From positions 1,178,001 through 1,242,000 of the forward strand of contig CM035353.1 in the NCBI GenBank assembly GCA_020137815.1: a DNA stretch of 64,000 nt. The letters run 5' to 3'. Within the stretch, counting starts at the first letter, position 1. Each line of letters starts with the position of its first letter. The stretch is from Hormiphora californensis (taxonomy: Eukaryota; Animalia; Ctenophora). The translations under genes were made by a program, and so were the position numbers. The notes beneath the pieces were generated by a model that was not told the origin of the DNA, did no database searches, and saw only the letters and a program-made list of their open reading frames with translations. Below, in pieces: positions 7,485 to 51,977 of this stretch.

Positions 7485-10400
7485 TTAATGTATATCCTGC
7501 ATTAGGTTCTTCTTCATACTTTGTAGTTCTTCTCCTCTTTTCAACAGGTTGGGTAGTGAAGCATTGAACTTGAATTTGTTCCCCTTGCTTTTATCCTGGG
7601 TAATATTAGTAATGTTAATTAATAATATAATGTTTAAAAAATGATATAATCAAGTTTAAGTTAGTAATACATACTAACACGGCCGCTTGCAGTCAGAATA
7701 CGGTAATGGAAAACGGAGACTAGTGTCTGACGGTGTATAAGGTCTAAATGAGGCACGGAGCTTTTCTGAATCAGCTTTTCAAGACGAATTCAACGCAACC
7801 GGAATTAGCTTTCTATCTTATCGGGAAGGTTCGGTTCACTCACGCTCATTTTTAGTCATTTTTGCCGCGCGAGCCAATCAGAGGCCAGAATTTCGAAATC
7901 CAGCCCTCTGATTGGCTCGCGCGGCTAAAAATGAAAAAAGTGAACCACACCTTCCCGATAAGATAGAAAGCTAATTCCGGTTGCGTTGGATTCGTCTTGA
8001 AAAGCTGATTCAGAAAAACTCCGTGCCTCATTTGGACCTTATACACCGTCAGACACTAACGGAGACACTGTATGAAGGCGCGCAACCAAGGCCAATCGGC
8101 GCGTTAGTACGTGCTGACAAAAAGTACTTTTAACAGATTGTTGACAAAAGCCCTTGCGCGTTACGCAAATTCCGCGCAGATTACTGTATTTTGTATTACC
8201 GTATTCTGACTGCAAGCAGCACTGTAACATTGATTTTGATGCTGTAATTCAAAAAGGGAAAAACAGTCGTGCTTGAACCTTAGTTCCAGGCTACGACTAT
8301 TGTCCACTGAGACCTGAGATTTTAGGTTTCAGTGACGGCTATTGACTTAAATCTCAGGGAATAGCCGTCACTGAAACCTGAGATCTCAGGTCTCAGTGGA
8401 AAATAGCCGTTGCCTGAAACTCAGGTTCAGGTACGACCAATTTCCCCAAAAGCTGCTAATATTGTAAAGTGCTTGATGAAAAAAGAAGTGATGCAGTTGT
8501 AAAACAACACTTGTGACCCCCCAAAAAGTGCTTGTATCATGGTCAACTCACGGGTTTCAGATTCCTCAGAACAGTCCCAGACTGAATGGCACCCACTAAG
8601 CCATCGATCAGAGTTTCAGTTTCCCGTTTTATGAAGGAGCGCTTTTGTTTTGCTGTCACCTTGTCCGGCAGTGGGGACTCTGCAATGGAAATAAAGGGTT
8701 ACATCAATGCAATTAAAATGTTTGTACAATAACTTAAGTCCTCTATAATAAAATACCCGGCCAGCCAAGTGAGGGCTGTTTGGTTTTCCTTTGATTTAGC
8801 GCGTTGATAAGTAACAATGCCCGGCTTTATAAAGTATTGCTTTCACTGAAATGAAATAAAACAGGCCGATTTTCACACTACTGGTTAATGGTAATTTTTG
8901 AATGAATTTCAACGATTCAGTCGCCATATTTCTTTGTGAATATTTTCAGTCCCCATTATACTAGTAGCAACTAGGTGTGCGAAAAACGAGGGCCATCTGG
9001 CAGAACCGGGTGGGTTTGCTATCACTAGCAAATGCTTGAATCTTGAATCCCTGTGGAGTAAGTACTTTTGGAAAAGGAAAAAGGGGTAGGTGCAGGGATT
9101 CGAGGACGGAGGGGAAGATAAAATGTATATGGGAGAAAAATATTGAAAAATGTATACCTCCCTACGCTATTTAACATACACGTGGTGCTTGTAGCGGAGG
9201 TACGGTAATGACAGTGGTGCTTGTAGTGGAGATACGGTAATACGGTAGTGGTGCTTGTCGCGGAGATACGGTAATAGCGGATACCGTAATGGCGCGGACT
9301 TGCAGCACGTCATAGCGCATTGATTAGCCACGCTTGTGCGTCTTCTTACCGTTTTTCACACCAGAACTGTTTTAGAGGAGTAGAGTGAGAGAGATATAGA
9401 AAAGAATGGAGAGACATCGGGGAGTGAGAGAGATATAGAAAAGAATGGAGAGACATCGGGGAATGAGAGAGATGTAGAAAAGAATGGAGAGACATCGGGG
9501 AGTGAGAGATATAGAAAAGAATAGATAGACATCGGGGAGAAAAAATAGATCATTTGAGAACTCCCCAAGCGGATAGAGATAGGTTAGCCAAGCGCAGAGA
9601 GGTAGGTTAGCCACGCGAGTAAGAGACATGGGGAATACTATTAAAAAGAAAGAGAACACGGAGAGCTAGCTCAAACTTTGCTAGAGGGAGTCAAGGCACG
9701 GCTAATGTCTCGAGGACAAGGACATTTACCCATTTGGGAGAGAAACATAGAAAATATAGAGTGAGAGCTGCATCTAACTTGGCTAACAGATCGCGTGACT
9801 TTATTCTCAACTATCTCGTGACTGTTGCGTTTGACCTGCCAAGAATGAGGTGCTTCTTGATTTTCATATCATTGCTGGCCCTGTCTCCTGCGACAGAAGG
9901 TAAGAACACAATTATTGGCACATAAAGGCAGTCATTAGCTACGGCTAACTAATTGGATTTATTTTAATTCTTAAGGGTGATTATTTAGTAATCTAAAGTA
10001 GTTTGAAAGTTTCAAACTTTTCAACACTACTTTAAACAAATTAATTTGAGCACTGATGAGCGGAATGTTACATTCTGTGAAACATATGTTTGCGTAAATC
10101 TCCGTGTTTCATTTCTACTAATACAGCGCCCGTGACAAGGTTGAGCACTTTCGGTGGCAAGCGCAACTTCATACTATATTTATAATTAAGTATAAAACCC
10201 ACGGCTATTATTATAATCCACTGCTGCGAATAGTAAACGAAAAATAATGATATTTCAGTGTGGAGTCCAGTTGTACGTAAAACTAAGATCCCATTTGATC
10301 TGGAGAGCACCCCTCTTCAAATCAAAACGGACTCTCCTGCTGGGAGTATGGACATGATCTGGGTGAATACATTCACTGCAGATGGCAGTTCCATTGGATG

Positions 10401-13400
10401 GGTGGGGGTGAGGTTCACCTCACCTTTCCAATACATCATCGGCTACTGTACCAGTTCATTGACCTCCCTCCCAGTACAACCACCAGAGGGAGTGGACAAG
10501 ATGTGGACAATTCGAAAGACGGCTACCAACCTTACCATAGAGTGCAACGGGGTGGAGGTACTGAACTACCAGTTCAGTAACAGTAGTGATACTGATAACT
10601 GTGTACCCAAGTGGGGAGGAGATGTAGTGGTGAAAATAGAATTTGACCCCTTCTCGGACAAGGCATCAGACAGCTACCGTGCTGCAGGTAATGAAGGAAT
10701 GATTAACAGTCATCACTATCCTGCCGGCAAGAAGCGCCAGGTGGCGACTGCGACAAACCATAGCCAATCTGACGAGTGACGATGGTCGATGGTGCGCTCA
10801 ACACGTGGCGCTAACTTGGCGCTACAATAACGCTATGAACCCCGATAGCTGTATTATCAGTCGTTTGAAGATTTTACGCGCCCATTATAACTGCGTTGGG
10901 AACAGCCAACTTCATAACGCGCCAAGCTACAAACGTTCATAGTACATATTATATTTCAGTATGGAATCCGGTTATGCATGACACTGACATCCCATTTGAT
11001 CTGGAGAACACCCCTCTTCAAATCAAAACCAACTCACCAACTGGGAGTGGGGAGTGGATCTGGGTGAATACATACACTGCAGATGGGACTGAGATTGGAG
11101 GGGTGGGGGTGCAGTTCACCTCACCTTTCCAATACATCATCGGCTACTGCACCAATCAACTGCAACTCCCAGTGCAACCAGGAGATGAAGTGGACAAGAT
11201 TTGGACAATTGGAAAGAACACCACCTCCCTCAGGATAGAGTGTAATGGGCTGGAGGTTCTAAACTACCAGTTCAGTGACAGTAGTGATACTAACTGTGTA
11301 GAACAGTGGGGAGGAGATGTGGAGAAGATAGAATTTTCCTCCTCCTCTGACACCGCATCAGAGAGCTACCAAGAAGCAGGTAATGAGGGACTAGGGAGTG
11401 ATTAACAGTTATCACTATAATACGCTGACTGAGTAACCCAATACTTATATATAGTCCCTGGAAAATGACTAAGGCGGTTCGTTATGCGCGTTACCGGTAG
11501 TTTCAGGAGCATATCAAGTAGGAAACGCGAGTTACAAGTGATTCCATGCTTCCACTGTGTGCGGCTGAGTTGGTTTTAGATGTTGGGACACCTTAGGCGG
11601 ACCAAATTTGCAAAAATAGCAGGAACAATTGCGCGGTGGGCACTGGGCACCTTGAACCGCCTTAGTCATTTTCCAGGGACTATAATCAATTTTCAACCAC
11701 AATTTGCGCCAGTTGGCGCCAGACCATGGCCAAATTTGGCGATAGTGCGAAAACTTCTATATTTGTATCCCCATCGGATAAGTATCGGATAATTGTTTAT
11801 GAGCCGCATGATAAAAGTTTATTGGGATGATATCTCCTTCCGGCTTGATCAATCAGGGACAAAATGAAATTACGGTGTTTTATTAAACTTAATAAAACAC
11901 CGTAATTTCATTTTGTCCCTGATTGATCAAGCCGGAAGGAGATATCATCCCAACAAACTTGTATCCCCATTGATACTATAATAATGGTGTAATGTTTCAG
12001 CTTGGAGTCCAGTAAAACGTAAAAATGACATTCCATTTGATCTGGAGAGCACACCTCTTCAAATCAAAACAGATTCCAAGAGTCAGGACAGGATCTTGGT
12101 GGAATTATTCACTGCAGATGATAGTTACATTGGATCAGTGAGGGTGAGGTTCACCTCAACTATGAAATACGACATCTTCCCCTGCACCGGATCATCGACC
12201 TCCCTCCCAGTACAACCACAACAGGAAGTGGACAAGATTTGGACAATTAGAAAAAATACCACCACCCTCATTATAGAGTGTAATGGGGTGGAGGTTCTGA
12301 ACTACCAGTTCAATGACAGTAGTAACAATTACTGTGTACCCAGGTGGGGAGGAGATGTAGTGGAGAAGATAGCATTTCACCCCTATGACACCGCATCAGA
12401 CAGCTACCGTGCTGCAGGTAATGAAGAAAGAGTGATTAGCAGTTATCACTACGCTGAGTAATTCAGAGTTGCACTGCTCTATTATACTTATGGTGATGTT
12501 ATGTACAATATTAAATGTATACTGTGGTGATCTCACAAGTGGTATTCAGGTATTAAATTGACTAATCGATATTACATCCACTCTATCCATCAGTGTGCCC
12601 CGGGTTTACTGTGGATGGATCAGTGCAAGGAAGTTGGAACGACACAGATCCAGGACAGACAGTGACCATCAACTGTCAGAAGAAGCATGTTCTAGACGGT
12701 ATCTCTGAGAGGACCTGTAACACTGATGGAGTGCAGTGGGATAGTGAAGTTCCTATCTGCAGGAAAGTTCGTAAGTTTCGATGGGTAATATAATAGGGGT
12801 GATTGGTAATTTTATCCTTTAATTTTACCCGTGCAAAACCACGTATTACTGAAAAAGATGGGGAACTTTTTCAGTGATAGGTTTACTCACTGGAAAATAT
12901 GAAAAGTTGTATTTAGAAAGGGGCGAGCTGGAAATTCGAAATCTCGAGTTTCCGCACTCCAGGGGGGAACGACCAGAGATGAAATTGCATTGTGCATGTC
13001 ATAAAGTTGGTTTGTTGTTTATATGTTATAGTATGCGATGTTTTTATTTTTTGTACTGTACTGTTTTGTGCTGCAGAACTGGACTGAGAAACTAAACCAG
13101 ACTGTGTTCCAAAATTCCGGTAAGCAATGCCACTTGATATACACTCCAAGCCGATTGAGGGAAAACAGTCGTGCCTGAACCTCAGTTTTAGGCCACGGCT
13201 ATTTTCCACTGAGACCTGAGATCTCAGATTTCAGGCTGTTTTCCCCCAATGTACTTTTCTATGGGAGGGAACTCCAGCGGCTGAAGTATACATTTGATGC
13301 CCTACTAGAACAGAGCATTGCCATTGCTTATCTGGCGGACCCAGACCCCGTGTTGACTCGGATTGGTGCCGCTAGATAGGCCATATCTCCACCCACCCCT

Positions 13401-19086: not shown

Positions 19087-19459
19087 TCTCTCTTTCTATT
19101 TCTTACCTTTTGTCTTTTTGAATGGTTCTCTTCGGGATGTCTAAAGAAGGGAGGAAGGATGGATTTAGTTCAAAATACACAAGTTGATGAATTGGTACAT
19201 TGGTGGAAACAAAGAAAAAGTAATTTGTTGACCAATAAAATAGCAATAAAATACACGTTAAAACAGTCTTATTAATTTGTTACTATATCTTCACTGATCT
19301 CCTTCTCTACTTAGCATCATTAAAACTTTTCTCCCAGCGTGTCCCTATTGCGCCTCCAAGTCCCCACTTGTGCTTCTCTATACCATGGTTCCCATGGTTA
19401 CGCCCCCAGATTCTCCTGGTTCCCATGGTTACGCCCCCAGATTCTCCTGGTTCCCATGG

Positions 19460-22400
19460 TTACGCCCCTAAATTCTCCAGACTCTTCTTCACGTACTCCG
19501 GGTTATATTTATCCAACATTTCTGCCATGCTCAACCTCTCCATATCCTGCCCAAATCCACCACCACCACTAACATCCACACATACCTCACCCTCTCCATC
19601 TCCCACGCAAACTCTCTTATCGCTCTTGCTGCTGTATCCCGATGACCTCCCTGAGCTTCTCAGAGATTTTAGTGAGCGGCTCAGAGAACGGCTGAGTTTG
19701 GATTTTGAGTTCCTGAGAGCGCCCTTGAGAGCATGACCGTTTAGATATCCAGTAGAAGTTTGGCCTGGTTTCTTAGATAGATCATAGTCAAGGGAATTGG
19801 CTCGAGTTAGGTCGTTAAGTTTCTCAAGTTGCCGATTCAGTTCCCCAATGTCGGTCAAGGATCGTGATTTCTTGACCAGTTTCTGATCCGGGTCTAACCG
19901 GTCCAGTTTCTCCAGTAGCGATATCTTGTCCAGTAGGACACTATTTGTAGAGCCACGACGTGAACTCTTTCTACTCTCATCCCCACTTGAGATATAAGCA
20001 ACTCTTGTCGCATCAAACTTATCCTCCTCCTCAAAACCCTCGTCACCATGGTGATGGTTTAACTGTCGTCGAGCAAAGTTGGGGAAACTGTACTTGGGGC
20101 GTTTCTTGAGCATCCTCGTAAAGAAGCCGCCTTTTTTCTTGTGAGATTCCTGGGCCCTTTCCTCTTCTAGTTCATCTGAATCCATTAGGTCCTCTTTGGA
20201 GAGGTGTTGCTTCATAAACTCCATCTCACCGTGGAACTCTGCAACCGAACCAGTCTCACTCCTGTCATCACCATGGTTACCATGTCTGTTACCTTGGTAA
20301 CCATCAGCTAGTGTTTCATCAGCCTGGCTTACCCTCTCCATCTCCCGTTTTATCTTGTACGCGGAATCAAAGTGATCCTTCCAATCATCGTCCAACTTCT
20401 CTTTCGACCCTACGTGATCCCACAATGAGTGATCTCTGTGTTCAATCTTCCTCCTCAGGTCTGGGATCTCGGGTTGTTTTGTCATCAGAGACTCTGCGAT
20501 ACTCCTCTTGAACTTGGTAGATCCATTACGGAGCTGTCGGGCTATAGAACTTGCCAGACCTCCTGAGGATTTAGAGGCGTTGGATCGGTCACTCGCAAAC
20601 AGAGATCCACGGGAGTTGCGTCTACCGAATGATGGTTGCTCCTCTTCTTCCTCTTCTGATGACTCTGAAGAATCTGACGAATCTGAGTACCCGGCAGACT
20701 TCCTAGCGGGTGTTTTCTTCTTCTGGTTTCGTTTAGCTAGGTACTCCTTCACTTTCCTAAGAATGTACTCCTCATCAACCGAACTATCCCCCTCCGAACT
20801 ATCTGAAGAGGAAGAGGAGGAACTAGAGGAATCACTACTACTACTACTGCTGCTATCACTAGATGATGATGTACTATCATGTTGTGGAATAACTCTCCTC
20901 CGAGATTTTCCGTTCCTTGCCCACCAATCATCATCTGAGTGTGCTCCTTCATCAAAACCGAAACTCGGCCTACAGCCCTTCTTCTTTTCACTCATAGACC
21001 TCTTCAACTTGGGACCTGCCTTCCTCAGATCCCCCTTCAACAACTTCTTCTCTCTGATCGCCTCCTCTATCTCCCTCGCCAGCGCCCTCTTCAAATCAGT
21101 TACAGTCGGTTTGGAAATACTCCCACTCTTGCCCAGGATATCCCTTGTGAGCTGCCTTGTGTAATGTTCTATCTCATCATCTGTGTCATCGAACTCTACT
21201 TTCGGAGGGGGAACCTCGTGTAGATTTGGGTAGTAATTACTATCGTCACCAGTTGGATGAACTGCCTCACTCATCCTCCTTAGATTAGGGTACCTTACAT
21301 CCTCTATCCTCTCAGCAGCAGGACTTTCAGCTCGCTTAATAGCATCTGATACCTTCTCTCCCCGCTGTATTACCCCAAAACCAGGGTCAGCTAGAGCGGA
21401 GATATGATCTCCTTTCCTCAGGATCGGTATATCTTGAATACCAAGGTTTTCTTTGAACATTGACACTGTTTCAGAGTCTCCGTCTTTTGGGATAACAATA
21501 GAATGAGGATTATCGGCATCTTTTAGAATTGTATTGATGCTATCTCCTTTCTTTATCGCTGTCTCGTTGTCAGGGAGTCTGTTCACAGCGAACCTGACAG
21601 ATCTGTTGAGGGTAGAGTTCCGTTGCCGTAGCGACCCCCCTCCACCACCATGTCTCATACTACTTCTTTTGTAGCTCCTTCTCAAGGAATCATCTTCATT
21701 TCCAAGTGAGGGGTAAAGACTGACCTGCTCGATTGGGTGTTGGTCCAGTGCGTGTTGTGGAGTTCTCTCCATCTCCATGGTTACAGATGAGCGGATATCC
21801 GGGTTCCGTGCAGGTCTGTCAGTATCGTTCACAGAGAGAGGAGGGGGAGGGGCGGGACGGGTCTTGCCGTGACTGGATGGGGTTGACCCCATTGTTGGAA
21901 GTGGATCAGATGGGTTGCCTCCGCACCCACCTGGCTCACCCCTGGTAACAGGGCACCCTGTTTGGGCCACCTCTGGAACTACAGGGGCTGGTGGTTGTTG
22001 AGGGGGTGGTTGCATGTTGTACCCTCCAAAAGGTGGTGCACCAGCCATTCCTGGGTAGGGGAAGAAGGGTGGGTACCTGTTACCCGGGTACATCATTCCA
22101 GGGTACATCATGCCCGGGTACATGTGCGGGTACATGCCAGGACCTGCCTGGGGCATGCCAGGACCTGCCCCGGGCATGCCAGGACCTGCCTGGGGCATGC
22201 CACCCTGGTATGGATCATATTGTTGCTGCTGCATTTGAGGCTGAGGCTGGGCAGCAGGAGCAGGTTCTGACTCAGGTACAAACTCTGGGTAAATCTCGTT
22301 CCCAGTACCAGAGGCAGATGTTCCAGAGAGGGGGTTTCTATAACGACCAAACATTGCTTTAGCCTTCTCGAATTCTATATCAGGCACTGTATCACGACCT

Positions 22401-25400
22401 GGGGGCTGCCACTCCTTTCTCAATTGTGTGAGATCAGAAATACCTCCCGGAATCTCGCCTCCATTCGCCTGAAGAGGTCCAGCATTTGCATTTGGGTACA
22501 ATTTGTTCTTTTTGATGGACCTCACGTGCTCCTTTATCCTTCCGATTGTGTCACGTAGTGGTGACTTCCTTCTCGTTCCCTCACCCTCACTTTCACTCTC
22601 CTCTCTCTCCCTGATAAACTTGTCCCTCGCATCATGGTCTCCCTGGGCAACGGGTTTAGCAGTTCTCGGGGTAACAAGATTCTCATCGTTTGGGATGGGT
22701 CTGGAGAATCTGTGGTTGTACCACTCTTTGGTGTAGGGTAGCCCATCCAGTTCGCAGTCACCGCACCCTGCCCACTCCCTCTCCTCATCCCAAAACTCGT
22801 GTGCTTTTACTGAAATTAGGGAGAGAGGGTGTTACCATGGTGACAAGGGGGAGTCAAGTTGTAAGTGTCACTAAGTTGTAAGTCACTAAGTTGTAAGTCA
22901 CTAAGTTGTAAGTCACTAAGTTGTAAGTCACTACGTTGTAAGTCACTAAGTTGTAAGTCACTAAGTTGTAAGTCACTAAGTTGTAAGTCACTAAGTTGTA
23001 AGTGTCACTACGTTGTAAGTCACTACGTTGTAAGTGTCACTACGTTGTAAGTCACTACGTTGTAAGTCACTAAGTTGTAAGTCACTACGTTGTAAGTCAC
23101 TAAGTTGTAAGTCACTAAGTTGTAAGTCACTACGTTGTAAGTCACTAAGTTGTAAGTCACTACGTTGTAAGTCACTAAGTTGTAAGTCACTAAGTTGTAA
23201 GTCACTAAGTTGTGAGTCACTAAGTTGTAAGTCACTAAGTTGTAAGTCACTAAGTTGTAAATCACTAAGTTGGTAGTCACTAAGTTGTAAGTCACTACGT
23301 TGTAAATCACTAAGTTGTAAGTCACTACGTTGTAAGTTACTAAGTTGTAAGTCACGTACTGGGATATTTCTGTCGGATTATTACAAACTCCTTCACTTGA
23401 GATCCAATCACTGTCATAGTCATATCTAGTAGTAGCGTCTTGTTGTTCCGACTGTAATGTGAGAGTTATTCGATTAGTAACCATGGTTACAGTTGTTGGT
23501 CAGACTGATTTCAAATGAAATGTATGTCAGTATACGTGCTCATCAAGAGTACGATTTAAATCTTACGGTTGCTTTTTTCTCCTCCCTTCAGGTCTAGGTT
23601 ATACCAAACGCGGAAGGTAACTTTGTCCACGTGTGACACTCTACTAACCTGACTACTGAGTGCATCATTTTGTCCAGTTTGTATTTGTTGCACAGGTAGA
23701 TGAACATTTCCTTTATTGTAATGTGGGGACTCATCTCCATTACCACCTTGTTACCGACTGGCAGGTGACAGACAACCTTGATCGCCTAAAAGGGGGAGCG
23801 GTGACAAATTTAAATTTCCGAAAGAAAACGAAGCTTTTTATAGAAACTAAAGACTAAAGATTCTTACCGGTGGAATGGGTGGGCCCTTGTTGTGCACAAC
23901 CCATATTTCCTTAATCCCCAGATTACCAATGCTGCTGCTAACCGTGAAGTGTGGTGGTAGCGGGTTATACCTGAAAATATATAGGTGTTATGAAGCACTG
24001 AAATCTTGTCAGCACTATTCGATTTTATCAAAGCCCCGGAAGATTTGATATACATTTTGTAACAAGATAAAGACAGAACTCCAAAGTGAGCCATGTCAAT
24101 TTTTTTGTACCTGTTAGGTCTGATTTCGATCCAAGCGTTAGGGTTATCTACTTTAGGACTCTTTCTTATCGCTGCCAGGAGTTGACCCATAGTTGTCCGC
24201 TTATCCACCTTAACATAACATTTCCTCTCTTTGCCCCTCTGATCCGAGGGTAAGTGCACCTGCAAATTCATATTAGCTGCTGGATAGCTATTGCCTTAAA
24301 TTTCAGGGAATAGCCGTCACTGAAACCTGAGACTTCAGGTCTCAGTGGAAAATAGCCGTGCACTTGACCTGAGGTTCAGGCACGACTGTTTTCCCTCCAT
24401 TGACAGGTTTATACCTTGAGTTTGACTGCCTCCTCTGGTAGTCCCATCCTGGCCTCGTGGTCGGTGGGAAGATCAATTAGTTCTCTACCAGGTGCCTTCC
24501 TGATTATATCCCTTATATCGTCAAAAAACTGGAGGGAAGGTTTATTTATATTTCCTGCCATGTGCAGTTCATAATGCAGTTCAAAATGTTTAACTAGTAA
24601 GTAATAATGTCCAAAGAAGTTTTACTAACTCAGTTAGTAACTGTGTACATGGTTCACTATTCTACTAACTGCATTTACTGTGTACTAACCTGGTCGGCCA
24701 TCATCTTGGTTTTGAATCTGATTCCCATTGTCTCTTCGTACTGGTTGTCAACCTGATAGTACAGAGGAGGGTTAGGGTGGAGGTAGTAATGAAATGGCCG
24801 TTTTGGTTACGAAGTCACCCCTTTTGGCTTTTATTGCATACTCCGTCACCAATACTAACAGAGGGTGGAGGTGACATTGGCCAACATTGGCCTATAAACA
24901 CTTCAGCACCCCCTCAACATGTCATATAACGTACCATTTTAACAAATGTTTCCTGTCGAGACACCTTCAGGGAAGCCAACACTCTCATCTCTATCTTCAA
25001 CTTCTCATCTGGGGTAGGAGGAATTAGAAACTAATTGACATACCTACACAGTATAATCGCAGTTCCTCTAAAGACCTTGGCCCCGGTTCAGAGTTGTTGA
25101 GTAACTCAACAGGTTCGGAGAGAACAGTCAGTGAGACAAAAGCCCCTCCCTGCGCCCCTCCACCCCGCCATTCCCTCCCCGCCCCTCCACCCGCGGCCGG
25201 GTTTGAACAAAACAATTCACTAACCTTGATATGCCCATACTCGTTATAGATTCTCCTTCACCCCCACCCCGGAGCGCCCCTCCCCCTCCCTACTACACTA
25301 ACCTTGGTATGCCCACACTTGGTAGACCCCCTCCATCCCCTCCCTCCACTAACCTTGATAAGCCCACACTCGGTAGACCCCCCTCCACACCACCCCACCA

Positions 25401-25680
25401 CACCCCACCCGACCCCGCCCTCCCTAATGCACTAACCTTGATAAGCCCACACTCGGTAGACCCCCTCGTGTTTATTCTGCACCTTCACCAGCTGGATGGA
25501 TAAGAATGCACGTGCTAGAGGTAACCATTTCTTATCCTCTCTCTCAAACACAACGCCTGTGTACAAGCCCAAAACATGGGTCATTGTGTCACGGTGACTA
25601 GTCAATATTATAGCCCTCCTATTAAAGTAATGGGTTAGTAAACTGGTTGTCGGTTGCTTTGGTAACAATGAATTCTTCAT
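19460..25680 (-). CDS. EVH1/WH1 + two Cordon-bleu-type ubiquitin-like domains + long disordered Pro/Ser-rich region (~1440 aa)
   Basis: Phase-consistent exons 25680-25437, 25008-24935, 24752-24690, 24528-24415, 24259-24111, 23970-23868, 23785-23649, 23451-23360 and 22809-19460. EVH1-like VVFEREDKKWLP...YRVWA...GIRFKTKMMADQFFDDI. UBL-like LKVHLP...SIGNLGIKEIWV and IKVVCHLP...YLCNKYKLD. Start codon uncertain (25680, 25584 or upstream). Confidence 0.8.
22860..23355. repeat. 15-bp intronic minisatellite (GTCACTAAGTTGTAA)n
   Basis: Fills the 23359-22810 intron starting right at the donor. Confidence 0.95.
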
Positions 25681-26393
25681 TTTGGTGTAGCCACTAAAAC
25701 AAGAAATTGCCTTGCTCGACCCTGTTTTTCCACGCCCCGCACACGGAGAAACAAATGTAAAGGAGGATTATAACATAACAATACGTCAACACAGAAAGTT
25801 GAGTCTAAACAAGACACAGACAGCTGTAGTGTGTGTGTATGGAGAGGGCTTGTTGTGGGAGATTGTGTTAGCGTGTCTGGGGAAAAGTCTTCCGTGCTTC
25901 CCTCTATACTATCGAGTACAACAGCAGTTACCTAACTGCAGTATTCTCTCTCTCTCCCTCTTTTCCTTGTCCCCCTCCCCAGCAACTTACTAGACAAAAT
26001 AATCCAGGTTCATATCAGTTTCAACGACGGATCACGGATCGGTCATTTTCCCAGACTTCGGAGTCCAAGCGGCAATCATCCAGTACCCAGGGCCCTTTAT
26101 CCCTACACCCCTGCCAGTTCCCATAAGGAACCGACCGAATCAGGAAATACTGGTCCCTGATTGGCTGATAACCAGTCACGTGACCTAAATAACGAGTTCT
26201 GATTGGTTGTTTACTTGTACAATGTACTGTTTCGGTCGATTCCTGCCAGTACGCATGATTTGTGGATGGTGGTAGACCGCCAATTAAAATGGAGAAGGTT
26301 TACGAGATTCTTGTAAAATACTGTGTCACCAGTTGTCACAGTTGAAAAAACTCAGCTGCGGATCAGTGACTAGGTTGCTTTCTCTACTTAAAG

Positions 26394-29836: not shown

Positions 29837-31814
29837 TATTGATTCAATATAGATTGGCTGGTTGTACATGGTGTAGAACTACACTTGTTTTGTGTTGACT
29901 GCCTCATCTTTCAAACTCTACTATTATTTTTCTGATCTCTCTCTCTCTCTCTCTCTCTCCCTATTCATGTTGTCTCCCTCCATCTCTCCTTATTCAAACT
30001 GTCTCCCTCCATCTCTCCCTCTCTGATCTCTCTCTCTCTCTCTCCTTATTCATACTGTCTCCCTCCAGGCTCTATCTCTCCCTATTCATATTGTCCCCCT
30101 CAGCCCTCCCTCTCTGATCCCTCTCTCTCTCTCTCTCTCTCCTTATTCATACTGTCTCCCTCCAAGCTCCATCCATCTCTATATCCTTCTCTATATCCTT
30201 CTCTCTTTCATTACTTGATCGAGTTGAATGTTGATACATAGCCGAGTCTGCAGACAATGTACACTATTATACACACACCCCCTCCCCCCACTTGGCAAAC
30301 ATTGTAACTTGGTTCCTCCCTTTTTTGTGTAGGCTGGCCACTTTGAACACCGTCAGTTTCCAGCTTTGAATTCTTTGTGTACATTTAGTTCTAAATACTA
30401 ATCATTTAGATAACATATTTACCTAGGTAACCTTGGTAACATAAACTCTTTCCTAATTCCTAGCAAGTCACTTCAAGACCTATAACACAGCTAAATGGAG
30501 CGTGGAACTGTTTTATGTGGAAGTATCTGTGGAATTGTGGGGATCATTGTCCTAGTTCTGATTTTCGTATTCCTGAGCGCCTTCAGCTACATTTGATTTT
30601 ATGAAGGAGCAATACGAACTTGTGGAAGCTTTGATCTGAGGACAATCAGAATTGTGTGGCGGAGGGTTGATTTGAACTCTCGAGGATGGGTAGACAGAAA
30701 TTAATGTCACAGAACAACGTGGCAGTGTATGTGCATGTTTTATCCATTTTAAATTGCCGGGTCAAGGACATGATAATTACATCTATACAAATTGGAACTC
30801 AGCAGCTTGTGCTACATTTTATAGATCTTATATTCAGCAGATATAATTCAGAAGTTACACGCCTATATAGCACTCTAGAATCCAGCTGTGTTGTTACCAA
30901 GATCCATGGATCTTGTGCACAGTTATAACACTATAGTGTATCCAGTCTCCAAACACCATCTAACTGACCATGACATACTAGAAAGAGTTTTTTAATTACA
31001 GAACTTATTGACGTCATATATTTTGTATGCTAAGACATTTCAATTATTATACTTTATCCCCCCTATATAAGATTTGTGTTCAGAATGAATTTCTTCAAAG
31101 AATTCCTCACATGTCTATTTTGAGCCCTCTTGAATATGTGTGGAGGAAGCGTTCAGACCCATTTTCAGACTGCATTTCTCTTTGCCTTGTTCGACAAAAC
31201 AAATTTCTCTTACCATAATTACAACATTAACATACATGACCATAACATAATTAGTTTTATTTTAGTGCTACAATCAACGCCACTAAAAGTTAGAAGAGTG
31301 TGGTAGAGAAGGAGCGAGAGAGAGGAGAAATCAGAAACGGTTATAATTTCTAAAAATTCAGTTCTAATGTTTTGGACGGTGACTGTCCTTGCTATTCTTG
31401 CCAGAAATTTTTATCAGAGTCAGCGAAAGTCAGAAAAGAGCCCTGGAAATTGAGTCAGATAATTCCACGAATTGTGTGCTTTTATGGAATTCTAAGAATC
31501 TCTGACTCCATTATCTGGCAGTTCTACTACGGATCCCTGATAGGTAGAACTGCCATGGAGCTCCATGGCAGTTCTACCTATCAGGGATCCGTAGTCCGCA
31601 GTTGTTTCTTGACTTCGTTGACATGGGTATTGGGTTCTAACCTCCCAGCTAGACACACAATTTGTTTCCGTGGAAGGCCAGAAACTGTATCCCCCCTGAC
31701 ACTACAACTATAATAACTCTCTCTTTCTCTCCATCTGTGACAGTCTGTGTGCGGCACCGTAATTGGCACTATGTTGCACCCCTGGATCCACTAATTTTCT
31801 GTGGGACTGCCGCT

Positions 31815-31816
<2 letters not shown>

Positions 31817-31854
<38 letters not shown>

Positions 31855-33076
31855 AAAAAAAAAAAAAAAAAAAAAGGGGGGGGAAAGGGGGAGGAGGGGA
31901 AAAAGAAGAGAGGAGAGAGAGAGAGAAGAGAGAGAGAGACGGGGAAAAAAATTTCCAAAAATTTTTTTTTTTTGGGGAAAACCCCCTTTTTTAAAAAAAA
32001 AATTTTTAAAAAGGGGGGGGGGAAAAAGGGGGGGGGGGAAAAAAAAAAAGGTTTTTTAAAAAAAAAAAAACCAAAAAACCCCTTTTTTTTTGGGGGGGGT
32101 TTTTTTTTTTTTAAAATTTTTTTTAAATTTTTAAACCCAAAATCCCAAAAATTTTTAAAAAGGGGAAAAATTTTTTTCCCCCCGGAAACCAAATTTTTTT
32201 GGGGAAAACCCCCCCCCAAAAAAAACCAAAAAAATTTTTTTTTTCCTTTTTTTTGGGGGGGCCAATTTTGTTTTCCCCCTTTTTTTTTTTTTGGGGGGGT
32301 TTTCCCCCCCAAAAAAAAAAAGGGGGGGGAAAGGGGAAAAAAAAACCCCCCCCAAAAAAAAAAAAAAGGGGGGGGGGGGGGGGGGGGAAAGGGGGGGGGT
32401 TTAAAGGGGGGGAAAAAAGGGGGGGGGGTTAAAGGGGAGGGGAGGAAAAAAGAGAGAGGGGGAGAGGAAAAGGGGGGGAAAAAAAAAGGGGGGGGGGAGG
32501 GGTGGGGGAAAAGGGGGGGGGGGGGGGGGGGAAAAAGAGAAAGGGGGAGAGTGGGGGAGGAAAAGGGGGAGAGGGGGAAAAGGGGGGGGGGGAAAAAAAA
32601 AAAAGGGGAGGGGAAAGGGGGGGGGGGGAAAAAAGGGGGGGGGGGGAGGGGGGGGAAAAGGGGGGGAAGGGGGGGGGGAAAAAGGGGGAAAAGGGGGGGG
32701 GGGAGGGGGGGGGGGGGGGGGGGGGGGGAAAAGGGGGGGGGGGGGGAGGAAAGGGGGGGGGGGGAGGGGGGGGGGGAAAAAGGGGGGGGGGAAAGGGGGG
32801 GGGGGGAAGGGGGAGAGAAAGGAAAAGGGGAAAAAAAAGGGGGGGGGGGGGTTTTTAAAAAAAAAAAAAAAAAAGGGGGAAAAAAAAGGGAAAAATTTTT
32901 TTTTTTTTAAAGGGGAAGGGGGGGAAAAAGGGGGGGGGAAAGGGGGGGGGAAGGGGGGGGGGGGGAAAAAAAAAAAAGGGGGGGGAGGGAAAAGGGGGGG
33001 GGGGGGGGGGGGGGAGGGGGGGGGGGAAAAAAAAAAATTTTTAAAAAAAATTTTTTTAAAGGGGGGGGGTTTTTGG

Positions 33077-33107
<31 letters not shown>

Positions 33108-33937
33108 TTTTAAAAAAAAAATTTTTTTGGGGGGGGGAAAAAAAACGGGGGCCAAAACCCCGGGGGGGGGGGGGGGGAAAAAAATTTTAAGGGGTTTTAA
33201 AAAATTTTTAAAAAAAAAAAAAAGGGGGGAAAAAAAAAAAAAAAGGGGGAAAATTTTTTAAAAATTTAAAAGGGGGGGGGGGGGGGGAAAAGGGGGGGGA
33301 AAAAAAAAAAAAGGGAAAATTTTGGGGGGGGGGGGGGGGGAAAAGGGGGGGGGAAAATTTTTTAAAAAAAGGGGAAAAAAAAAAAAAACCCCCCCGGAAT
33401 TTAAAAAAAAAGGGCGGGGTTTTGGGGGGGTGGAAAAATAAAAAAAAATTTTCCCCAAAAAAGGGGGGGGAAAAAAAAGGGGGGGGTTTTTGGGGGGGGG
33501 CCCCCCCGGGTTTTTTTAAAAAAAAATTCCCTTTTTTGTTTTTTTGGGGGGGGTTTTTTTAAAAAAGGGGGGAAAAAGGAAAAAAGGGGGAAAAAAAAAA
33601 AAGAAAATTGGGGGGAAAAACCCAAAAAAAAAAAAAAATTTTTTTTTTTTTTTTTTTTAAAAATTTTTTCCCCCCCCAAAAAAAGGAAAAAAAAAAATTT
33701 TTAAAAACCCCTTTTAAAAAATTTTTTTTAAAAAAAAAGGGGCCCCCAAAAATTTTGTTTTTTTAAAATTTTTTTTTTTTTTTTTTAAAAATTTTAAAAA
33801 AAACCCCCCCTTTTCCCCCCTGTTTCCCCCTTTTTTAAAAAAAGGGGAAAAAAATTTTTTATTCCCCAAAACCCTTTTTTCCCCCTTTTCCCCAAAAAAA
33901 AAAAAATTTTTTTTTTTTTTGGGTTTAAACCCCCCGG
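31817..33937. other. Homopolymer-run degraded sequence (probable sequencing/assembly artefact)
   Basis: Almost entirely runs of G, A, T and C, starting at a poly-G tract. The ORFs here are G/K/F/P-only. Confidence 0.9.
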
Positions 33938-41600: not shown

Positions 41601-43444
41601 TTCATGTGACATTGGAGAATGGAGTTGTAGTCATCTGGGATGGTCTATACAGTGTTCAGGTAAATCAATCAAAAAAAGTTAAAACTGGAAATTTATAAAA
41701 ACATAAAGAGCTGATAATAGGGATATCATTTTGGGTGAGTGCTGGGGTTCTTGGTCCAGGTGAGTAAAGCTCGTGATGTGCTGCATTACAATATTACATG
41801 TGTTACATTCCCTCTCCCTCAGATAAAACTACCGGAAGGTGACACGACCAACTACTGTGGGCTCTGTGGAAATGGTGATGGGAAGAGTGAAGATGATATG
41901 ATGTCTTCCAACGTGTATTTTAGAGGAAACCCAGGATTTATAGATGATAACAGTTTGGGAGCTTATGCTAACAGCTGGGCAATTGATCCGTGAGTTTTTG
42001 TCATATCTAGATCCTGTGGGTGGTGGTTTATAGACTGAGGTTGGGGTGGATAGATCTCACCCACTATATTGTACCCATGTATGTGCATTATAGTCTGATT
42101 TTAAATAACTGTCGTTTTTTAGAGTTTTCAAATTTCTTTAAATGACCAAAAGTCCGGTTCCTGATGAGATAGAGACTTGAAATTGGAGGTACCGAAGATC
42201 TTGCTAAGTTCTTCTGAACCTCCAAATTTCAAGTCTCTATCTTATCAGGAATCTGAGATATGACACATTTTGTTATTTCAGGGGTGCGACAGTTTCAAAA
42301 AATCCGTGGATTGTATAATGTCGCGACATTATACAGTAAACTGCAAATCTCTAACACTGTACTCATCTCTCTCAGGTATGGTCAATGTCCCGAATGGCAG
42401 TCTCTGTCAGTGGAGAGCTCGAGGTGTAGTGAGACGGAAAGAGAGGAAAGGAGGGAGAGATGTGGTAATATGTTCTCCATCCAGCAATTGCACCGTGCCA
42501 CGGTTCAAAAGAGGTAAGTACCACGTGCAAATTACACACGTGCATTACCGCGGTATTCAAAAGAGGAACCAACTACAAAACAATCATAAACCATATGGGT
42601 CTTCTTTTAGTTTCCATTTGATATCAAAATTACACACACATCAAAACATCGAATTATCAAAAACCCACAAATTATCTACCCCCTCTCCCCCGCAGGTGGA
42701 CGTGTCATGGTATATAGAGGCTTGCGTTACAGATAGTTGTGTAATGGCACAGTGGAAGGGAAGGCATGATCCTGCATGTGGAGTTTTGTCTGCCTACACT
42801 GCAGCGTGCCGGGCCGTGGACGTTTACATCTTAGGTATAATACTCTTTATAGCATCCAAATTTATTGGGTGTTGGGTGTGTTTTTGGTGGAGGAAGTTTT
42901 AGGCTTGCAAAATTAAGTTGTAGTCCATGTGAATCGACTTAAAATTATAATCAGGTTGTAATAATACTGCAAGGGAACCTTCTGTTTGACGTAACACAAA
43001 ACCTAAAATATCACCTTATAAAGAAACTTTATCCTAGTTCGGCATTATGTCATTTGTATTTTAAGTAAATTTATTAAAGCTTTAATAAACTTACTTAAAA
43101 TACATATGACATAATGCAGAATTGAACTTGGACAAAGTTTCCCACGCGATAAGACGTGTATTAGATCACGCCTTATTTAAAAAGACCTAAACTTTCTAGC
43201 CTAATTAATAAATTAACAGTCATACTCATAGTCATGATTTTATCCCTTAAGTCATCCCTTAGGTCATACAACCAATAGTCAATACAACCAATAGTCAATA
43301 CTACCAATAGTCAATACAACTCACCTTCACTTTCCATTTTCAGACGCACACTGGCGGAGTGACGTTGGATGCCCCAACATGAAGGAACACCAGGACTTTG
43401 TAATCACCACAGGGTGCCCCAAAACAACAAACCTCCTTGGATAA
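35618..43444 (+). CDS. Secreted mosaic protein: signal peptide - saposin A-type - Ig - follistatin/Kazal - Ig - VWD - C8
   Basis: Exons 35618-35693, 35994-36106, 37337-37478, 37677-37775, 38015-38160, 38263-38373, 38567-38634, 38944-39061, 39212-39303, 39436-39520, 39590-39711, 39864-39955, 40111-40241, 40463-40634, 40863-40952, 41305-41423, 41561-41659, 41823-41989, 42376-42512, 42696-42834, 43344-43444. Motifs GPGFWC..C..A..C, DGGWYVC, VCGSNCKTYQNDC, SGDYYC, CRVFGDPHITTFD, CGLCGN, YIEACVTDSC. About 7 small frameshifts must be assumed. Confidence 0.85.
36119..37327. repeat. 41-bp intronic minisatellite (CCAAT + CACGTG)
   Basis: About 29 copies of TCGTCCAATCAGAGCACGTCATTACTGTCACGTGATATCTC filling intron 2. 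Confidence 0.95.
38776..38884. mobile_element. 109-bp hAT-type MITE
   Basis: TIR CAGGAACCGACCGA; 8-bp TSD CTAATTAG. Relatives at ~26127-26245, 38392-38450, 40250-40338 and 59911-59985. Confidence 0.85.

Positions 43445-48380: not shown

Positions 48381-51977
<3,597 letters not shown>

Follow-up and report, generated by a model that had tools for sequence, protein, structure and literature searches.

We identified a nine-exon gene on the minus strand of a 64,000-nt stretch of the Hormiphora californensis genome (hereafter the window), whose predicted product very probably begins with an EVH1/WH1 domain, continues with two ubiquitin-like domains (UBL1 and UBL2), and ends in a long tail that is predicted to be disordered (Table 1). 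The gene is genuine. We lean towards the reading that its product is a WH2-less protein of the WH1-plus-cobl type, whose role would be that of a cortical adaptor and not of an actin nucleator. This architecture is not new to animals, since a protein containing WH1 and cobl domains has already been reported in Nematostella (Schultz and Terhoeven, 2013; PMC3849942); the original prediction had taken the arrangement to be one not known from other animals, and this precedent overturns it. The gene offers specialists in the evolution of actin regulators a useful correction; it is no new kind of system.

Table 1. Exons of the gene model, a candidate further exon, and conserved elements of the tail, in window positions.
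Feature	Window positions	Strand	Content and basis
Exon 1	25680-25437	-	Likely N-terminal half of EVH1/WH1, residues 33-81 from the ATG at 25584; W52-L-P-L
Exon 2	25008-24935	-	Likely EVH1 middle, with F103; from the spliced model
Exon 3	24752-24690	-	Likely last strand of EVH1; G116-x-x-F119-x5-A125
Exon 4	24528-24415	-	Likely C-terminal helix of EVH1, linker and start of UBL1
Exon 5	24259-24111	-	Putative N-terminal half of UBL1, from likeness to UBL2
Exon 6	23970-23868	-	Putative C-terminal half of UBL1 and proline linker; joined to exon 7 in an X1 contig
Exon 7	23785-23649	-	N-terminal half of UBL2; Pfam RBD and Cobl below cut-off, PDB 2DAJ, Atlas TUG-UBL1/RBD
Exon 8	23451-23360	-	C-terminal half of UBL2; spliced model and X1 contig
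Exon 9	22809-19460	-	3,350 nt; tail predicted to be disordered, first rich in Pro and Gly, later in Ser, interspersed with short conserved stretches
Candidate extra first coding exon	26013-25991	-	23 nt, with an ATG and a GTAAGT donor; in-phase acceptor at 25694
KRAP-like proline motif K641-T-R-P-A-P-P-P-P	21839-21865	-	Departs from the strict Cobl-like consensus
RVxF-type motif R728-S-V-R-F (728-732)	21590-21604	-	PP1-docking consensus; invariant in five of five sequences
Conserved block, residues 891-933	20987-21115	-	Predicted helix and basic tail; sole cryptic WH2-like candidate

Gene structure and splice junctions

The gene model consists of eight small exons (63-244 nt) and one large exon, and its spliced reading frame comprises 1,441 residues closed by a single terminal stop. 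All eight introns (82-550 nt) have GT-AG ends and are in phase, which matches the original description of eight small exons spliced onto the large one. The splice sites scored higher than every one of 100,000 sets of eight GT or AG sites drawn at random, a comparison that is circular because the sites had been picked partly on the features that were scored.

Further support for the junctions came from X1, a sequencing run of a diverged relative that we presume (as a guess) to be RNA; five X1 contigs align to the gene region, mostly at less than 90% identity. Introns 6, 7, and 8 are all absent from one of these contigs (689 nt), so three of the eight junctions are supported, in a relative; junction support in X1 is confined to these three, and introns 1-5 were placed from the sequence alone. 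Between its matched pieces this contig has 91 letters across intron 8, where 83 + 8 were predicted, and 20 across intron 7, where 20 were predicted; its loose end fits the final letters of exon 6 (24 identical out of 30), the next best place in the window (on the plus strand) reaching 18. Since the contig skips introns 7 and 8, UBL2 and the tail are contiguous in the relative. All 18 differences listed between this contig and the window, for positions away from the contig ends, fall at third codon positions, and 17 of them are silent. Intron 8 itself is nearly all a 15-bp tandem array (about 33 copies, window 22856-23355), and a 31-bp unit present three times at window 19386-19478 overlaps the stop codon of exon 9 and the 3′ flank.

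The translation start is uncertain, with Met33, Met1 (25680), and the upstream exon of Table 1 all candidates; the six ENA open reading frames (ORFs) homologous to exon 1 (see below) all start at Met33. Exon 1 closes with ∼22 nt that, together with the donor, are present four times on the minus strand at 25219-25458 (donors 25436, 25353, 25302, and 25224), where none is expected in 100 shuffles. A stop codon lies one codon past the first donor, so the later donor copies would be unproductive. Intron 1 also contains a possible 24-nt in-frame microexon (window 25044-25067, minus strand, with AG and GTATGT ends), which would insert eight residues into the EVH1 region; the model is complete without it. 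Just upstream of the gene, an X1 contig (1,374 nt, depth 50.9) matches 91 nt at window 26126-26216, a stretch with several CCAAT-like boxes; the contig represents either a neighboring transcript or a repeat.

The probable N-terminal EVH1 domain

EVH1/WH1 domains adopt a PH-like β-sandwich closed by a C-terminal helix. Our assignment of such a domain to exons 1-4, which we regard as very probably correct, draws on motif anchors and partly on general family patterns. The anchors W52-L-P-L (exon 1) and G116-I-R-F119-x5-A125 (exon 3) recur as in the EVH1 domain of SPRED1 (W31-L-P-L and G100-L-T-F103-x5-A109, as given by primers in PMC7437355), 64 residues apart here and 69 apart in SPRED1. When residues 33-140 were shuffled 200,000 times, a relaxed form of the anchor pair appeared twice and the strict pair never, for a pattern that was picked after the sequence had been seen; the relaxed pair is absent from all six raw frames of the window. 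In addition, F45, W52, and F103 stand at W-7, W, and W+51, which at the level of motifs is near the spacing of the groove residues of ENAH (Y16/W23/F77) and Homer1 (W24/F74) in PMC11237882; aromatics at a groove-like spacing are a feature in common with the group of Ena/VASP, Homer, and WASP EVH1 proteins.

Exons 1, 2, 3, and 4, scanned singly, had no match to Pfam WH1 (PF00568), and no EVH1 match was found in Pfam, PDB, Atlas, or NCBIfam with single-exon fragments of 21-111 residues (for NCBIfam, none of six sequences matched). Likewise, no PDB match was obtained for exons 1, 3, 5, and 6 or for alignments A2 and A4. AlphaFold2 folded exon 1 alone into one long helix (pLDDT 73.5, pTM 0.38), which is unlike EVH1; as a single sequence of 49 residues, half a domain, it makes a poor test. 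A crude propensity scan of the EVH1 region called several strands, and helices too. The EVH1-like domain of the original prediction thus has support from its anchors at the level of motifs, but not from a profile match or, for the exon 1 fragment, from the fold; the DKKWLP motif is present. The anchors that could be compared with published text are those of SPRED1 and not of Ena/VASP. Pfam found no EVH2, Homer coiled-coil, CRIB, or VCA match in the protein, in which it differs from Ena/VASP, Homer, and WASP, and no match for the Sprouty (SPR) domain, in which it differs from SPRED. A male-specific WH1 gene of Hydractinia (HyS0057.51) is annotated with WH1 only in PMC9926710, so we did not link it to the present gene.

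The probable ubiquitin-like domains

Exon 7, which encodes half a domain, matched Pfam RBD at an E-value of 8e-5 (22.9 bits against a cut-off of 25.7) and Pfam Cobl (PF09469) at 0.053 (14.3 bits, where the cut-off is 25). Its best match in the PDB (E-value 0.05) was 2DAJ, the structure of a cobl domain (PMC3849942). An Atlas cluster (TUG-UBL1 93%/RBD 32%, score 0.83) was taken as a lead only. Scanned singly, exons 5, 6, and 8 had no match in Pfam, and UBL1 (exons 5 and 6 alone) had none by profile or structure in Pfam and the PDB. UBL1 and UBL2 align with a score that was reached by 3 of 2,000 shuffles, and a profile built from both N-terminal halves again put 2DAJ first in the PDB, weakly (E-value 1.1). 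A ubiquitin fold is well supported for UBL2 and is likely for UBL1, the latter because of the similarity of UBL1 to UBL2; their type may be either cobl or generic RBD. The original claim of two Cobl-like domains is upheld to this extent: 2DAJ and the sub-cut-off RBD and Cobl matches speak for UBL2, and its likeness to UBL2 speaks for UBL1, but RBD outscores Cobl.

With RBD as the top Pfam family on exon 7, RBD also in the Atlas lead, and EVH1 anchors that match SPRED1, the protein could instead be an independently assembled small-GTPase effector scaffold, in which an EVH1 domain and two Ras-binding-type domains, unrelated to Cordon-bleu, would link an active GTPase of the Ras, Rap, or Rho family to an EVH1 partner and to PP1. 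Such combinations have parallels, for example Drosophila Still life, with EVH1 and RBD, and RGS12/14, with tandem RBDs. We nevertheless consider this origin doubtful: the only ubiquitin-fold match in the PDB is a cobl domain, and a cnidarian protein with WH1 plus cobl already exists. A SPRED-like version of the scaffold, bringing neurofibromin to Ras, is unlikely, because K51 and R118 stand (in an ungapped motif register) at the positions of SPRED1 G30 and T102, and in SPRED1 binding to NF1 is lost with T102R and greatly reduced with G30R (PMC7437355).

Relatives and conservation

We found four matches to exon 9 among 7,990 scored candidates: a Pleurobrachia bachei model (sb/3461328; EukProt EP00116, P0001), with 89-90% identity, and three unnamed ENA ORFs, with 37-41% identity. 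The P. bachei model is the closest named relative and the sole annotated gene model found; it covers exon 9 only, is itself unnamed, has no Pfam domain, and lacks the N-terminal domains. Models reduced in this way to the large last exon are one route by which such genes go unnoticed.

A HMMER search of 1.84 billion representatives for exon 1 returned four matches, two of them genuine and both exon-only ORFs; P0024 and P0025 are unrelated repeat proteins and were dropped. The exon-1 clusters comprise six ENA ORFs, each identical to residues 33-81 at 45-47 of 49 positions (92-96%), and all six diverge directly after the exon 1 donor. For two of these six ORFs, from distant relatives, an exon-9 ORF occurs on a contig of equal size (50,683 for P0029 and P0002; 156,939 for P0028 and P0012), which suggests that the two ORFs share a contig in each case; the other four exon-1 ORFs sit on contigs of 561-1,079 nt. 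Those exon-9 ORFs are only 42% identical to the tail of the window, against 92-96% for exon 1, so constraint is much stronger on exon 1. No spliced homologue of the N-terminus was found with exon 1 (34 candidates) or exon 7 (one candidate), none of which scored, or with HMMER over the 1.84 billion representatives. A metagenome scan with alignment A1 gave 97 pattern matches, of which one (L001) passed tblastn; at 31% identity over 70 residues, it was discarded because the likeness was confined to one motif and put down to chance.

The absence of the N-terminus from the P. bachei model and of any spliced N-terminal protein from the database searches, together with introns 1-5 that X1 contigs do not bridge and the helical single-sequence model of exon 1, would fit a mis-joined gene model, in which exons 1-4 either form a small gene of their own or do not encode EVH1, and the start of the UBL-plus-tail gene lies downstream of them. 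We hold this to be improbable, for exons 1-5 all keep an open, matching frame at distances of 140-428 nt, the homologous ORFs diverge at the same exon 1 donor, one EVH1 anchor lies in exon 1 and its partner in exon 3, and distant relatives have exon-1 and exon-9 ORFs on contigs of the same size.

The tail, predicted to be disordered, and its motifs

The tail has low predicted order: with an alignment of six sequences, AlphaFold2 gave the tail a mean pLDDT of 40, with 917 of 1,115 residues below 50 and isolated helices only. The tail disorder of the original prediction is accordingly also what the structure prediction returns, and the PGM/YPG repeats, the PAPPPP motif, and the Ser tracts it described are present in the model. 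Pfam has no family in the window tail at E-values up to 10, the four homologous tails have weak unrelated matches only, and a PDB search with alignment A1 returned a poly-Ser stretch only. Conserved or invariant blocks of exon 9 lie at residues 1226-1235, 831-836, 791-796, and 1423-1440; among the conserved blocks of this exon are a basic run of 10 residues and a C-terminal helical motif.

Motifs were counted in five tails (P0007 was excluded as a near copy of P0002). The strict KRAP consensus occurs in none of the five, and a looser motif, with a pattern that was derived from these same sequences, occurs in all; KRAP motifs bind syndapin (PMC8282341). The conservation of the RSVRF motif, one of four patterns tried, was matched by 27-40 of 1,000 column shuffles. 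RSVRF fits the RVxF consensus given in PMC4794898 and lacks the two leading basic residues of the stricter form, and the short consensus is found by chance in about 25% of proteins (same text). A literature search for a link between RVxF, COBL, and PP1 listed one paper, which looks unrelated.

All five tails are without a WH2 match in Pfam at E-values up to 10 and without a WH2-type pattern; direct actin nucleation is therefore unsupported, and the original description of the protein as an actin regulator is not sustained. Direct action on actin, with the block at residues 891-933 as a diverged WH2-like site and the polyproline feeding profilin-actin, has in its favor that this block is conserved and predicted to form a helix followed by basic residues, but it is very unlikely, given that the block is unmatched by Pfam WH2, that the model has only one PPPP run, and that the Nematostella protein is also without a predicted WH2.

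Relation to Cordon-bleu proteins and proposed role

The Nematostella cobl protein (GI:156394513) has an InterPro WH1 domain at residues 75-186 and no WH2 (PMC3849942). In the same study, HMM searches of the Trichoplax, Amphimedon, Hydra, Nematostella, and Mnemiopsis proteomes found cobl in Nematostella only, the cobl-plus-WH2 family was dated to the bilaterian root, and the WH1-plus-cobl protein was left as a lone and unexplained case. The product described here would share with it, going by the published description, a likely WH1 domain near the N-terminus, a putative cobl domain, and the lack of WH2, with both of our domain assignments below profile thresholds; it has two UBLs and a tail of 1,116 residues, and the Nematostella paper gives no cobl count, length, or tail motifs. 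Literature searches that took in few subscription papers and, in one case, the top 20 of 771 matches found no account of a ctenophore WH1-cobl form; passages of PMC7456537 and PMC4137706 have no bearing on the architecture.

Vertebrate Cobl, COBLL1, and the bilaterian homologues with a single WH2 (e.g., Drosophila “proximal to raf”) share with our protein a long proline-rich region, the ubiquitin-fold domain (UBL2 here best matches 2DAJ), and a K...APxPP motif resembling an SH3 ligand. In contrast, these proteins have one to three WH2 and no WH1, whereas the present protein likely has WH1 and has no WH2, and they carry three KRAP motifs (Kr+APxpP or KrRAPpPP), whereas here a single non-canonical one lies in the tail. 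Membership of the Cordon-bleu family is defined by at least one C-terminal WH2 (PMC3849942), which was not found here; the gene product is not Cobl or Cobl-like proper.

The adaptor role that we favor follows the apparent anatomy of the protein, in which a highly constrained domain, putatively for peptide binding, precedes a pair of interaction domains and a disordered tail that carries short motifs; neither a catalytic nor an actin-binding domain was detected. The EVH1 domain would dock on one fixed partner, a proposal based on the high identity of exon 1 relative to the tail. The tandem ubiquitin-fold pair may bring the protein to a small GTPase or a membrane; in vertebrate Cobl, membranes, calmodulin, and syndapin are all bound by the N-terminal region (PMC4559358). 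In the tail, the KRAP-like motif could recruit an SH3 protein and RSVRF could recruit PP1, and actin would be affected, if at all, only by way of the recruited partners. We infer all of these partner assignments.

If the gene is orthologous to that of Nematostella, it would turn the lone Nematostella case into a lineage and move the WH1-cobl pairing towards the animal root; the pairing would be older than thought, because the 2013 study found no cobl protein in Mnemiopsis. Ctenophores are possibly the sister group of all other animals (PMC10232365), and if they are, this arrangement would go back to the earliest animals. We advance, tentatively and as less probable than the adaptor role itself, that the ctenophore and Nematostella proteins are orthologues and that WH1 plus tandem cobl was the ancestral form of animal Cordon-bleu, which in the last common ancestor of animals would have been an adaptor recruiting PP1 and SH3 proteins, and that bilaterians lost WH1 and gained WH2. 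The bilaterian change would then have been one from an adaptor to an actin-binding protein, and ctenophores would suit tests of the ancestral function, for example in comb-row cilia; vertebrate Cobl is needed for motile cilia.

Other features of the window

On the plus strand at 10237-12461, the window contains three similar ORFs of 158-180 residues without a Pfam match, which are probably repeated exons of one gene. A C8 domain, of the type present in mucin-type proteins and von Willebrand factor, was found at 42264-42902 (plus strand, E-value 2e-7). At 50432-51346 on the minus strand is an ORF with a weak DUF1258 match (E-value 4e-4), presumably a transposase remnant, which it resembles. The stretch at 31791-33190 is of low complexity and very purine-rich, with runs of G and A, and may be a sequencing or assembly artefact.
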